Below the pieces are notes generated by a model that did not search any database, was not told the DNA's origin, and saw nothing but the letters and a program-made list of their open reading frames with translations. From the IMG/VR virus record IMGVR_UViG_3300024493_000316: DNA of 64,000 bases; one strand, written 5' to 3'. The DNA comes from an uncultured virus (IMG/VR IMGVR_UViG_3300024493_000316) (taxonomy: Duplodnaviria; Heunggongvirae; Uroviricota; Caudoviricetes). Both the position numbers and the translations under genes were made by a program. Shown piece after piece: positions 12,313 to 16,387 of this stretch (its first letter is position 1; each line of letters opens with the position of its first letter).

Positions 12313-12687
12313 TCAAGTGAAAGAGTAGAAGTATCGCCCGTCGCGTTGGACTTTCTCGATCGTGGCTTCCAAGGGCAGCTCGTCCTTGCACTCCTCCAGC
12401 TGCTTCAACAGCACTACGGAGCCGGAGAACGACACATAACGCTCGCCCTCAAACTCATACTGGATCGTGAGGCAGTCGCCGCTCTTGTCGGCGTATTTGC
12501 TCTTTTTGACGCGATAGGCCAAGACGAATATCGGCTTGCCGATAATCTCCTCGATTTTCTTCTTCTTGCCGTCAAGGGTTGGTGCGCCCTTATAGACATC
12601 TCTGAACCGCTTGCGAGGCCTGCCGTCAGAGTTGTCCGGCGGCGGCGGGGGCGAACTTGCGTTCGAGTCTTTTTCGAAGTCCGACAT
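12313..12687 (-). CDS. Small protein overlapping the DGR RT 3' end (candidate non-Avd accessory factor)
   Basis: 124 aa, GGAGG RBS, 62-bp overlap with RT; beta-strand-like pattern, not the helical Avd pattern. Confidence 0.65.
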   Translation of the reverse strand: MSDFEKDSNASSPPPPPDNSDGRPRKRFRDVYKGAPTLDGKKKKIEEIIGKPIFVLAYRVKKSKYADKSGDCLTIQYEFEGERYVSFSGSVVLLKQLEECKDELPLEATIEKVQRDGRYFYSFT

Positions 12688-13705
12688 TTTTACATTCCTC
12701 CATGAGTTCGTCCAGTTTGATTGAAACGGAAAGGTTGCGGGTGTTCGCGGGTTTCAGCCAGCCGTAGGTAGAGCCGATTGACGAGCGAAAGGTGTCAAAA
12801 GAGATTTTGCCCGCCTCATACTGGCGGGGCAGCCTCTTTATGCGGCGTATGACCCGCCGCGCGGTGGATTTGCGGAGCAGGACATAGCTCTTTCCGTTCC
12901 GGCGAAAATGCCGGTAGCCGAGGAAATCCACCCCTTGATACACGGGGAAGACATCGCACTTCGAGAACTTGAGTTTGAGGTGGTCTTGCAGGAACTCCCT
13001 CATGCGCCGCGCCGCCTCGTGCAGCTCGGCCTTGTTGTCCGAAAACAGGCAGAAATCATCACAATAGCGCACATACGCGCTCACTTTCAGCTCGTCCAGC
13101 ACGAAGCGGTCAAGCTCGTTCAGATACAGGTTGCCGAACCATTGGCTCGTGTAGTTGCCGATAGGCACATTCTTACCTCCGGGGAACGAGGACACGATGT
13201 CGCGCATGAGCCACAGCACATCGGGGTCTTTGATTTTCCGCTCGATTATCCGCATGAGAACCTCTTGGTCGATCGAGGGGTAGAACTTCGAGATGTCGCA
13301 CTTCAAGCAGTAGTCGTAGCGCATGACGAGATCCATTGTCCTCGCGCTTCCGGCCTTGCCGCCTTTGCCGACCCTGCAAGCGTAGGAGTGGTCATAGAAC
13401 ATACCCTCCCAGATAGGCGACACGACATTCATAAGCGCGTGCTGGATTATGCGGTCGGGAAAGAACGGCAAAACATAGATGAGCCGTTCTTTCGGCTCAT
13501 AGACCTTTTTCGTGCAGTAGGGAGAAGTCTTGTAGGTCTTGGATATTAGGAGCTGGCGGCAATGCTCCAGCTTGCCCTCTTTGTCGGTTAGGAAGCGTAT
13601 GACATTGTGCTTGCTCTTTTTGCCGAGCATGGCTTTATGAAGAGCAATCTCGAAGTTTTCCTTAGAGATTATCCGCTCCCATAACCGGCCATGTCGTTTC
13701 GCCAT
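12626..13705 (-). CDS. DGR reverse transcriptase
   Basis: YEPKER, DRIIQHA, KCDISKFYPSI, VPIGNYTSQWFGNLYL (DGR SQ motif), YVRYCDDF, GVDFLGY; adjacent TR/VR. Confidence 0.97.
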   Translation of the reverse strand: MAKRHGRLWERIISKENFEIALHKAMLGKKSKHNVIRFLTDKEGKLEHCRQLLISKTYKTSPYCTKKVYEPKERLIYVLPFFPDRIIQHALMNVVSPIWEGMFYDHSYACRVGKGGKAGSARTMDLVMRYDYCLKCDISKFYPSIDQEVLMRIIERKIKDPDVLWLMRDIVSSFPGGKNVPIGNYTSQWFGNLYLNELDRFVLDELKVSAYVRYCDDFCLFSDNKAELHEAARRMREFLQDHLKLKFSKCDVFPVYQGVDFLGYRHFRRNGKSYVLLRKSTARRVIRRIKRLPRQYEAGKISFDTFRSSIGSTYGWLKPANTRNLSVSIKLDELMEECKNVGLRKRLERKFAPAAAGQL

Positions 13706-13842
13706 TTTTTGTTGGGGTTCAAACTTTCGGTTGCCCTACTAGCTCAAACCCCACTCCTTTTCGTGTTCTGCCTCCGCCTTGCGGCTTCGACATGGATTTG
13801 CGTTCAGCCGTGGAGTTAGGAAAGCTCTTTATTCTCCTCGTA
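13706..13842 (-). ncRNA. DGR spacer RNA (3' part of the TR transcript)
   Basis: Non-coding TR-RT interval with stems ggggtttgagct/agtttgaacccc around AGTAG..GAA and a gcc-GCAA-ggc hairpin. Confidence 0.6.
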
Positions 13843-13955
13843 TCGCCCCGCGCGTGCCGATATTCGTATTCACGTGGACACGCAAATTGTTAGCATTGAA
13901 GCAGCGAGAGCCGCAATTCGACCCATTGTCCCAATTGCCTCCTGCCAGCAACGCA
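13843..13955 (-). repeat. DGR template repeat (TR), 113 bp
   Basis: Aligns to VR with all mismatches at TR adenines; reads ALLAGGNWDNGSNCGSRCFNANNLRVHVNTNIGTRGA with 8 AAY codons. Confidence 0.97.
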
Positions 13956-14059
13956 GGAACGGCGCGGCGCGGGATTAAACGCATACCCCGTTTGCTCTCG
14001 CAAACTTTATGGATTCTACCCTATTTCAAGGACTTTTTCCACAAAAAAATATAACCGAT

Positions 14060-14113
14060 TCGCGCTTCGCGCGAGGGCTATCGCCCCACCCCAGCCCTCC
14101 CCAAAGGGGAGGG
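14060..14113 (-). promoter_or_regulatory. Two GC-rich DNA hairpins downstream of VR (DGR homing cruciform candidates)
   Basis: Coding strand: ccctcccc-ttt-ggggaggg (14095-14113) and tcgcgc-GAA-gcgcga (14060-14074). Confidence 0.75.
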
Positions 14114-14144
14114 AGCGTGTTGCGCCCATGCGCCCCTGCGAGCA

Positions 14145-15443
14145 TTACGGTAAGCGCACTCCACGGCTCGCCCCGCGCGCGCCGACAACCGTATACACGC
14201 GGACACGCAAAAAGTAAGCACAGAAGCANNCACGCAAAACGTAAGCATAGAAGCAGCGAGAGCCGCAAAACGACCCATCGCCCCAAGAGCCCCCCGCCAG
14301 CAACGCATAGGTTTCGCCATATAACTGGCCTTTGCCTCCAAGCTGGCTTTTCTGATGGTGGTTGTTAGTGTCCCCAATGCTTAGAGGGTCATACTCGGCA
14401 GCCGCACCTGCTTGTCCAGACCAGTTGCGTATTGTGGAGTTTCCGCTCGCACAAGAGGATTTGACCCATGTCCACCATACTCCGGCAGGGTCTTCTATGA
14501 AGAACTTGCTTATCATGCGGTTGCCATTCGTAGCTGTATGCCCGCCCGCCGTATTTGGGCTTGCGTTGCCTTGGATATTGACCTCCTGCGGGCAACCTTC
14601 CATTGCGGCGGAGAACTGGTCGCTGTCGAGCAGCTCAAGGCCGGCATTTGACAGATAATCTTGGCACTCGCCATATTGCTTTGACACTTGAACCGTATTC
14701 CCGAATTTTGACACATACTTATTGCCTTCAAGCGAGGAGAAGTATATCCCTACGAAGGTGTCGAGGAAATCAACAAAGGCCATACCGGGAGTGCCGAAGC
14801 CAGCCGCAGGGAAAAACTTGCGCGTTTGTATTGAGTTCGGGATTATATCCCCATAGTTGAACCCCGCCGCAGGGTGCGCCACGGATCCAACGACGCTTCC
14901 CGTGCTGTTCTGCATTTGCGTATTGCTGACGCTCTGGCAAAGGGTATGCACCATTCCTATGCAATACGAGTCCGCAGTCGTGTAGCCGGTTGGCGCGACC
15001 GCGTTGACATCGGACACCAGCGCAAACGAAGTTCCAGTCCACACCACATAGATGTAGATGTCCTTGCCTTGCGGCCAAGCCGTAGTGCCTACATAGATCG
15101 CCTGCGCGTCTATCTCTGTATCTTGATTGACATTAAAACGCTTGTGATCCGCGTCCGCAAACGAGATTGCCTTGGAAATAGGGTTGATGATGAGCTTGCG
15201 CCGGTTGGCCGAGCCTGCCACGGGCTTGATATAGTCCGGCACGCTCGCCATGAGGTCGCGCATGAGCCACGGAAGTGCGTTTGCAGCGTCTTCCCTCATC
15301 ATAGGATAGCCGCCGTCTTTCAATCCGTCATGCAAGACAATGGTCTTTTTATCCGTGTCAACGGTCGTTTCCCAAGGCTGGTCGCCGTGGAAGCTCTCGT
15401 GTTCGAGGGTTGTGCCGTATCGCCTTTGGACTGATTCTGCCAT
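14145..15443 (-). CDS. DGR target: major tropism determinant-like receptor-binding protein (Mtd N-terminal domain, C-terminal CLec-fold)
   Basis: N-terminal VDTDKKTIVLHDGLKDGGYP; C-terminal ED..G..W.W and LLAGGSW...CGSR; VR at the 3' end. Confidence 0.9.
   Translation of the reverse strand: MAESVQRRYGTTLEHESFHGDQPWETTVDTDKKTIVLHDGLKDGGYPMMREDAANALPWLMRDLMASVPDYIKPVAGSANRRKLIINPISKAISFADADHKRFNVNQDTEIDAQAIYVGTTAWPQGKDIYIYVVWTGTSFALVSDVNAVAPTGYTTADSYCIGMVHTLCQSVSNTQMQNSTGSVVGSVAHPAAGFNYGDIIPNSIQTRKFFPAAGFGTPGMAFVDFLDTFVGIYFSSLEGNKYVSKFGNTVQVSKQYGECQDYLSNAGLELLDSDQFSAAMEGCPQEVNIQGNASPNTAGGHTATNGNRMISKFFIEDPAGVWWTWVKSSCASGNSTIRNWSGQAGAAAEYDPLSIGDTNNHHQKSQLGGKGQLYGETYALLAGGSWGDGSFCGSRCFYAYVLRXCFCAYFLRVRVYTVVGARGASRGVRLP
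14168..14307 (-). repeat. DGR variable repeat (VR), with NN gap and a 25-bp allele duplication
   Basis: 113-bp TR homology plus 27 nt (NN at 14229-14230 and a second copy at 14231-14255). Confidence 0.95.
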
Positions 15444-15464: not shown

Positions 15465-15920
15465 TTAAAAGGGTTGAAAAATTCGGGTTGTGCGGGATTT
15501 CGGGTCGCCGGTTTCACTCCAGCCCCCGCGATCGAGATGAACCCAGCCGCTTGTCGGCTTCTTGTTCGGGGCGCAGGTGTGCGTGTAGAGCGGGCATTCC
15601 ATATACAGGTCGCACTCGGCCAGCCACGCTAGGTTGTTCATCACCCACCGTGCGAACGCCCCGTCCGTGTCCTGTATATCCATGCCAAGGGCAAAGTGGT
15701 GCGGCGAGTTGGTCGCCCCGCCCGCAGGCTGCACGCCGGACGGATCGCGCCATAGGCAGTTGCAGATGAGGGGCTTCGGGTATCGCTCCACGAACTTGTT
15801 GACCCGCCTTTGGGTTTCCTCCAAGTTCGCCATAGTCTTGGCCGGTATCTTGGCCGCGTCGTGATAAGTGCCAGCCGCGCGGTCTTTGATTAGGCACTCG
15901 CGCAAAGAAAAGTTTGCCAT
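15465..15920 (-). CDS. Endolysin, peptidase M15-like
   Basis: R...GATNSPH...GMDI and GWVHLD Zn-peptidase motifs; AGGAG RBS. Confidence 0.75.
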   Translation of the reverse strand: MANFSLRECLIKDRAAGTYHDAAKIPAKTMANLEETQRRVNKFVERYPKPLICNCLWRDPSGVQPAGGATNSPHHFALGMDIQDTDGAFARWVMNNLAWLAECDLYMECPLYTHTCAPNKKPTSGWVHLDRGGWSETGDPKSRTTRIFQPF

Positions 15921-15922
15921 GA

Positions 15923-16387
15923 TTATCTCCTGTTTTTGATGTAAAGGTATGCACCGGCGGCCAGAGCCAGCCCGATGAGGACAAGCCACACGATCCACAT
16001 TCCGCTTTTGGTCGTAAGTTCCGCCTCCTGCTTCAACTCCGGCTCGGCGGTAATGACAGGCTTGACCTCCGCCTCGACCCGCGCGTCCGTCTTGACTATG
16101 TTGTTGTCGCCTTGAAGCGTGGTCTGGTGGATAGTTATGACGCGGTTGTCGGTAATCTGTATTACCGGCATTTCGGCCTTAGGCTCGACCTTGCCCCCGC
16201 AGCCCCAGAGCGCAAACAGCGCACCCAGCGCAAGCAGGACAATTAAAACCTTTCGCCCCTGGCTCCGCAGCCGCAGTCGGCGCGGCCTGCTGGCCTCGAT
16301 TTTCGCCTTTACAACAGCCTTTCCCCGCCGCATGGCCGCCGCAATTATGCCGACAACCATCGCCGCAAAAATCAGTTTCTGTATCAT
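15923..16387 (-). CDS. Putative spanin (lipobox plus C-terminal TM)
   Basis: LLALGALFALWGC lipobox-like segment; C-terminal WIVWLVLIGLALAAGAYLY TM; next to endolysin. Confidence 0.55.
   Translation of the reverse strand: MIQKLIFAAMVVGIIAAAMRRGKAVVKAKIEASRPRRLRLRSQGRKVLIVLLALGALFALWGCGGKVEPKAEMPVIQITDNRVITIHQTTLQGDNNIVKTDARVEAEVKPVITAEPELKQEAELTTKSGMWIVWLVLIGLALAAGAYLYIKNRR

Follow-up and report, generated by a model that had tools for sequence, protein, structure and literature searches.

We analysed a 64,000-nucleotide (nt) stretch of DNA from an uncultured virus of the Caudoviricetes (IMG/VR record IMGVR_UViG_3300024493_000316), which as a whole we call the window and which carries a diversity-generating retroelement (DGR). 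All genes of the DGR region lie on the minus strand, as do the features described below, and sense-orientation coordinates of this minus-strand element run from high to low. The target gene (14145..15443, 432 aa as assembled) encodes an Mtd-like phage tail protein, with matches to Pfam mtd_2nd (1.2e-07) and Mtd_N (2.6e-04) and to PHROG tail protein (2.5e-18), and holds the variable repeat (VR, about 14169..14307) at its 3' end. The template repeat (TR, 13844..13955) is separated by a 128-nt spacer from the gene for a 359-aa reverse transcriptase (RT, 12626..13705; RVT_1, 1.2e-14; PHROG reverse transcriptase, 2e-112). Because all 23 differences between TR and VR fall at TR adenines (12/12 and 11/11), we take the element to be a DGR; the adjoining RT, the G+C-rich (GC) run that ends both repeats, and a sequence for initiation of mutagenic homing (IMH) with its non-identical counterpart IMH* are further DGR features.

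In the sense orientation VR ends in ...GGCGCGCGCGGGGCG (14183-14169) followed directly by AGCCGTGGAGT, the first 11 nt of the IMH (14158..14168), and TR ends in ...GGCACGCGCGGGGCG (13858-13844) followed by the IMH*, ATACGAGGAGA (13833..13843). The GC run is 15 nt long in both repeats, and after it IMH and IMH* are identical at 7/11 positions. The IMH 11-mer encodes Ser-Arg-Gly-Val, eight codons ahead of the stop of the target gene and so near its C terminus. We found no second IMH-like site within three mismatches in the window, and no second VR within the fetched flanks of the related loci described below (0/79).

An earlier note on this DNA had reported that the spacer carries an antisense copy of the IMH. 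A direct sequence check and an inverted-repeat search agree: plus-strand 13806-13816, AGCCGTGGAGT, is the exact reverse complement of 14158-14168, ACTCCACGGCT (11 nt, 100%), and the two arms are 341 nt apart. In sense, the spacer bears ACTCCACGGCT at 13816-13806, beginning 27 nt past the GC run of TR, just where the note had placed it, and a position-wise count confirms that this strand pairs 11/11 with IMH and 7/11 with IMH*. The note had also thought coincidence unlikely, which stands for this particular complement, found in only 2/20000 shuffles of the 128-nt spacer, and not for 11-nt repeats at large: when the 901-nt region was shuffled by dinucleotides, 161/2000 shuffles contained some exact 11-nt inverted repeat, and 27 such pairs, their arms at most 600 nt apart, occur in the window as a whole. 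With the motif and its position also conserved in 40 clusters of related loci, a chance inverted repeat is extremely improbable.

For comparison we fetched 140 loci encoding RT relatives at 41-63% identity, which with the window make 141 sequences. The layout VR, short gap, TR, spacer of about 110-190 nt and RT is shared by 79 of the 141; we excluded loci whose fetched DNA lacked a TR/VR pair or whose spacer fell outside 95-260 nt, and L094 was dropped because its VR end was not alignable. The TR and VR ends and the primer motif were anchored in all 79 loci, which fall into 40 clusters at 80% identity over the TR 3' end and spacer; one representative of each was used. Positions are numbered from the first base past the GC run (position 0).

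In the BPP-1 DGR, a template:primer duplex forms between TR117-129 and spacer nucleotides (Sp) 47-56, with priming at Sp A56 (PMC5703328; PMC6182149; bioRxiv 10.1101/2023.10.23.563531), and Sp47-56 is followed, after two nucleotides, by a stop duplex of Sp59-70 with RNA upstream of TR (bioRxiv 10.1101/2023.10.23.563531). The 11-mer of the window (ACUCCACGGCU, 13806..13816) is very probably the primer strand of such a DGR RNA, because its covariation and an adjoining stop-duplex strand reproduce this published architecture. Across the 40 clusters the spacer trinucleotide C-U-G (13807-13805) and the G-A at the TR junction are invariant, and GGCAAAACAC and GUA are invariant or nearly so. Run unguided on the 40 representatives, RNAalifold joined IMH* positions 3-6 to the 11-mer region in a helix that shows many double changes (IMH*:primer pair types CG 36/UA 4, AU 20/GC 13, GC 20/UA 14 and GC 27/AU 5). 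In the 10-pair IMH*:primer helix 68.4% of cells are paired, against 30-40% with slid partners, and the covariation score was 0.396 versus 0.171, with 0/500 shuffles reaching 0.396.

In the eight loci listed, a strand that starts 1 nt past the primer finds its pairing partner in RNA 3-20 nt upstream of TR; over the 40 clusters this duplex has a mean of -20.3 kcal/mol for matched and -13.3 kcal/mol for mismatched partners (p=2e-4). In the window, the duplex computation places the upstream arm of this stop-duplex analogue at 13976..13992 and the downstream arm, GAACGCAAAUCCAUGUC, at 13789..13805 (RNAduplex, -14.8 kcal/mol), and the single-sequence fold of the window also contains this pairing. 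By sequence, the spacer strand would pair with IMH* beside the first copied base, as in a BPP-1-type template:primer duplex, and the strand 1 nt past the primer would pair upstream of TR, like the cPRT stop duplex. By homology, C-U-G (13807-13805) may be the counterpart of BPP-1 C55-A56-G57, and G13844 that of TR G117. The covariation and the stop-duplex strand both point to cis-priming on IMH*, and the earlier note's picture of the segment as a free-standing guide is not borne out.

The fit of the primer to the two repeats depends on the distance from the junction. Expressed as fractions of the 40 clusters, the primer pairs VR and TR, respectively, in 0.93 and 1.00 at position 0, 0.97 and 0.23 at position 1, 0.97 and 0.05 at position 2, 0.95 and 1.00 at position 3, 0.57 and 0.85 at position 4, 0.53 and 0.90 at position 5, 0.35 and 0.82 at position 6, and 0.30 and 0.62 at position 7; over positions 4-7 the rate of primer-VR pairing equals the rate of VR/TR identity. 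VR and TR differ in 70 cells at positions 1-2; of these, the primer pairs VR in 68, TR in 1 and neither in 1. Duplex energies show a significant matched excess for VR at positions 0-12. Counted from the junction, most clusters have 4-7 contiguous VR matches; the window and the L046 cluster, with 11 each, are the extremes of the family, and in many relatives the primer has more matches in total to TR than to VR. What this alignment shows to be conserved is that the primer 3' end matches IMH over 4 nt and has a fixed 1-2-nt mismatch to IMH*; the remainder of the primer serves IMH*. This family-wide narrowing of the VR-over-TR match to positions 1-2, as read from sequence, is new.

Given these family rules, 9/11 of the matches in the window are expected: those at positions 0-3 because 93-97% of clusters pair VR there, and those at positions 3, 4 and 6-9 because they are common to IMH*, with which the primer has to pair. 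That leaves positions 5 and 10 as extras. The 11/11 match of the window can therefore be broken down into the conserved 4-nt match, six positions shared by IMH and IMH*, and these two extras. The pattern that the earlier note had suggested looking for in relatives is present in part. Spacer-IMH complementarity is kept at positions 0-3 and not over the full 11 nt; compensatory covariation is clear with IMH* and is represented by a single clear double change with VR; and the primer favours IMH over IMH* at positions 1-2 and follows TR beyond position 3. The preference is also seen in BPP-1, where our sequence check found the reverse complement of Sp48-56 to equal VR118-126 at 9/9 and TR at 6/9. 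All five IMH/IMH* differences of BPP-1 lie under the primer, which fits IMH at three of them and IMH* at none, and the mismatch at the third pair (TR120), Watson-Crick in VR, corresponds to family position 2.

Our reading is that the 11-mer is a primer strand whose match to IMH helps to choose VR over TR. Identity and targeting taken jointly, we put its probability at roughly 0.6; the targeting role by itself we rate somewhat short of even odds. The strongest competitor holds that the primer was selected solely to pair IMH* for priming, and that its match to IMH has no part in target choice, being the result of IMH/IMH* homology and of a VR AGCC fixed by coding. It draws on the 7/11 positions that IMH and IMH* share in the window, on AGC being a Ser codon in the target frame, and on L008, which works with only two contiguous VR matches and whose 18 TR/VR differences are all at adenines. 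It leaves unexplained why the primer fits VR and mismatches its own template at positions 1-2 in 38-39/40 clusters, why BPP-1 likewise pairs VR and not TR at TR120, and why a synonymous AGC-to-AGT change in the L077/L089 lineage is accompanied by G-to-A changes in the primer. We consider this account unlikely, if a serious contender.

Several observations nonetheless weigh against our reading. In the 179 cells at positions 4-10 where VR and TR differ, the primer pairs TR in 105, VR in 33 and neither in 41, and VR positions 8-24 show no locus-specific (matched) excess with the primer (p=0.32); both also count in favour of the competing account. The 4-nt VR signal is largely conservation, AGCC with GGCU, and the L077 cluster supplies its one clear double change (VR AGTT, primer AACU, TR AGAT, the sequences of the L077/L089 lineage); as covariation the match is weak because it overlaps the conserved Ser codon. 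Two of the 40 clusters break the rule at positions 1-2: in L008 (three loci) the primer fits TR at position 2, and in L069 VR has C at position 1. The representatives L006, L028 and L065 have C in VR where TR has A at position 0, a change that reads like adenine mutagenesis and conflicts with U:A as the priming pair. The RNA contig described below stops at 13966, so the predicted upstream arm (13976-13992) is uncovered, and a search of neighbouring ORFs for Avd with Pfam, PHROG and NCBIfam gave no match. The priming nucleotide, the linkage of RNA to cDNA and any contact with VR DNA are things that we infer.

Two side observations belong with these exceptional loci. At position 0, VR has C or T against a TR A in L006, L028, L065/L067/L072 and L019/L036, as if the adenine expected opposite the priming U had been mutagenised, which is at odds with where cDNA synthesis is inferred to begin. 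In L008, L009 and L084, a 41-nt insertion between IMH* and primer holds UCGGCU, complementary to VR AGCCGA, which is possibly an alternative pairing site, or chance.

The lengths of the VR matches also bear on whether the full spacer 11-mer might lead the ribonucleoprotein to VR DNA or mRNA, for instance through an R-loop, independently of priming. Matches of 11/11 in the window, 11 in the L046 cluster and 9/9 in BPP-1 would suit such a dedicated guide; however, the run of VR matches is 4-7 nt in most clusters, the same bases covary with IMH*, and the 11-mer sits where BPP-1 has its primer strand, which makes a dedicated guide very improbable. A further possibility is that integration copies primer RNA sequence into the first bases of the IMH, the complementarity then being a consequence of homing. 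VR matches do form a contiguous run from the junction, and VR follows primer variants in L059 and L077. Against this, VR position 0 differs from the primer complement in some loci, and the BPP-1 boundary of marker co-conversion, at TR107-112, is upstream of the base copied first (PMC5703328), so that the BPP-1 IMH is not rewritten; we regard such imprinting as very improbable.

If the 11-mer is a primer that also aids targeting, the following sequence of events can be proposed. TR and spacer would be transcribed together and the 11-mer would fold back to pair with IMH*, which directly follows the GC run on its 3' side, as the covariation supports. By homology to BPP-1, the invariant C-U-G would be placed at the RT active site and reverse transcription primed in cis, starting on the last G of the GC run. 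The next spacer segment is predicted to form a counterpart of the BPP-1 cPRT stop duplex by pairing upstream of TR, in keeping with the duplex energies above. The primer RNA would then stay covalently joined to the cDNA, leaving the primer 3' end colinear with it, and the first IMH bases of VR (AGCC...) could pair with that end, IMH* being mismatched at positions 1-2. Annealing of the RNA-cDNA hybrid would thereby be favoured at VR over TR, as Naorem et al. 2017 proposed for BPP-1.

More tentatively, and as a reading that we hold below the targeting role itself, the IMH may be defined by complementarity to the cis-primer 3' end, with the IMH* mismatch at the second and third duplex positions acting as a conserved self/non-self discriminator that could be common to BPP-1, the window lineage and a third RT lineage. 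If that were true, DGR retrohoming would be RNA-guided at the junction, and retargeting by changing primer and IMH together would be possible. The narrowing to positions 1-2 also offers a rule by which the IMH, and hence true targets, could be predicted from spacer sequence.

A second, more distant RT lineage among the fetched loci comprises 11 loci (L099, L114, L115, L124, L125, L127, L128, L130, L134, L135 and L137) from Enterousia and other Alphaproteobacteria metagenome-assembled genomes, with about 575 nt between TR and RT; L108, which has no motif, and L119 and L123, with doubtful repeats, were left out. Some 95-127 nt after TR, these loci have a VR-complementary spacer segment that directly precedes, on the 5' side, a conserved motif like AAGGCGGGG and pairs locus-specifically with the VR flank, including stop codons (UUAUCAA with TTGATAA, GCAUCAA with TTGATGC, CCAAGGCG with CGCCTTGG). 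For the VR flank the matched mean is -16.6 and the mismatched -14.5 kcal/mol (p=0.007), and the TR flank gives p=0.009; the result is exploratory because the segment was chosen after matches were seen. The register relative to TR is apparently shifted by 2 nt in this lineage.

The window DNA occurs in termite-gut metagenomes, in runs known as assembled contigs only, of which the ends and depths are to be taken as hints. A termite-gut metatranscriptome contig (X2) covers 13571-13966 at a word depth of 80.6, with adapters at both ends, and spans 11 nt upstream of TR, TR itself, the whole spacer and 135 nt at the start of the RT ORF; in the same run VR, the target gene and the rest of RT are without RNA cover, which is not evidence of silence. 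A second RNA run of the study ends at 13573. A DNA contig (X1) runs from 13300 to 14185, breaking inside VR at 14185, and in the window VR carries an in-frame 27-nt assembly duplication, consisting of two copies of a 25-nt block (14204-14256) with NN at 14230-14231. The copies differ from one another and from TR solely at TR adenine sites, and look like two population VR variants merged by the assembler, which makes the 432-aa ORF nine codons too long. Because of the X2 cover, the X1 break and the adenine-only duplicate, the data fit expression of a TR-spacer RNA together with variation of VR within the population. In the assembled contigs of these runs we saw no joints, no RNA-cDNA junctions and no VR variation at the level of reads.

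Between the 5' end of X2 and the predicted upstream arm there is a gap of 10 nt, and the end lies roughly at the point where cDNA of BPP-1 halts ahead of the stop duplex. In another termite-gut DNA run (X3, depth 2.3), a variant with changes at 13833-13834, 13892 and 13907 alters IMH* positions 9-10 and two TR bases and leaves the primer 11-mer unchanged.

Between the target gene and TR, two G+C-rich hairpins (14095-14113 and 14060-14074, together 14060..14113) can be read from the sequence downstream of the target gene, and a T run (14042-14054) comes after them; a terminator scan called neither hairpin. A promoter-like site (TGGAAA, 17 nt, TAGAAT; 14013..14041), recognised by consensus match only, would start the TR RNA near 14006. 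On the other side of the primer, a 3' stem-loop (13714..13752) with a UAGUAG...CGAAAG internal motif has a stem that covaries in RNAalifold. As for phage context, an ORF upstream of the target gene (15465-15998) has a weak endolysin match (PHROG 894, 1.7e-04).

Overlapping the end of RT is a conserved accessory ORF of 124 aa (12313..12687), which tblastn finds in 115/140 fetched loci. In the window lineage it comes after RT, whereas the second lineage has it between TR and RT. It matched no Pfam, PHROG or NCBIfam family. Its predicted structure (pLDDT 82) has an oligonucleotide/oligosaccharide-binding (OB)-like barrel at residues 46-124, with VIA matches of middling Z (4-6.7) to proteins like single-stranded DNA-binding protein (SSB) and no Foldseek match at E<=0.001. 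By its sequence this protein is not Avd, and a tblastn search of the window with BPP-1 Avd yielded no match below E=2; because no Avd was found, the modelled protein may stand in its place.

Among known RNA families, the 3' stem-loop with its UAGUAG...CGAA motif resembles Rfam RT-14 (RF02921) and RT-18 (RF03021), motifs that adjoin RT genes. The window nevertheless scores below the gathering thresholds of both (26.1 bits against 48.1 for RT-14, 16.9 against 41.3 for RT-18), so that its spacer does not qualify as RT-14; no Rfam family reaches threshold for it, and none of 17 relatives scanned attains the gathering score of any Rfam RT family. Other retroelements offer broader parallels: in group II introns, exon-binding and intron-binding sites (EBS-IBS) pair retroelement RNA with a DNA target, and in retrons the msr-msd RNA is primed in cis within the template. 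Unlike these, the window is without an intron or ribozyme, and the pairing proposed here covers at most 4-11 nt beside the cDNA; the likeness is an analogy only.

The closest comparison is with BPP-1, and the element is not a new kind of system. As in BPP-1, the spacer strand folds back onto IMH* beside the first copied G, a conserved C-N-G stands at the priming site, a strand one or two nucleotides past the primer pairs upstream of TR, and the third duplex pair is mismatched but Watson-Crick in VR. Unlike BPP-1, the junction pair is U:A rather than A:U, so the putative priming base in the window is U; the loop between IMH* and primer is 16 nt rather than about 50; TR has no avd gene ahead of it, which makes the upstream arm non-coding; and the GC-rich hairpins begin about 45 nt past the IMH 11-mer, whereas the BPP-1 inverted repeat adjoins the IMH. 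No Avd was found for the window, and its RT shares only 38.6% identity with BPP-1 Brt (over 264 aa, E 1e-49).

How DGR cDNA finds VR and spares TR remains an unsettled question in the field, and a 2026 PLoS Genetics study still calls DGR integration mysterious (PMC12875486). The idea that primer and IMH recognise each other, which the earlier note had put forward, is a rediscovery: Naorem et al. 2017 noted the better fit of the BPP-1 primer to IMH than to IMH* and proposed that homing owes its direction to the pairing of a cDNA-linked RNA primer with IMH DNA, integration then being completed by RNase H and Pol I (PMC5703328). Among the open-access articles searched, we found only this proposal and no test of primer-IMH pairing; the IMH goes unmentioned in Handa 2018 (PMC6182149) and in the preprint (bioRxiv 10.1101/2023.10.23.563531), and Wu 2018 surveys the IMH, not the spacer. 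The window agrees with the 2017 model in that the primer fits IMH better than IMH* (11 versus 7/11, against 9 versus 6/9 in BPP-1), and differs in that across the 40 clusters only the four junction-proximal bases keep the preference for IMH. The asymmetry thus recurs in a distant termite-gut phage DGR, in the 40 clusters of its relatives the constraint is narrowed down to positions 1-2 beside the priming site, and the window family adds comparative support to a hypothesis that had rested on one element.

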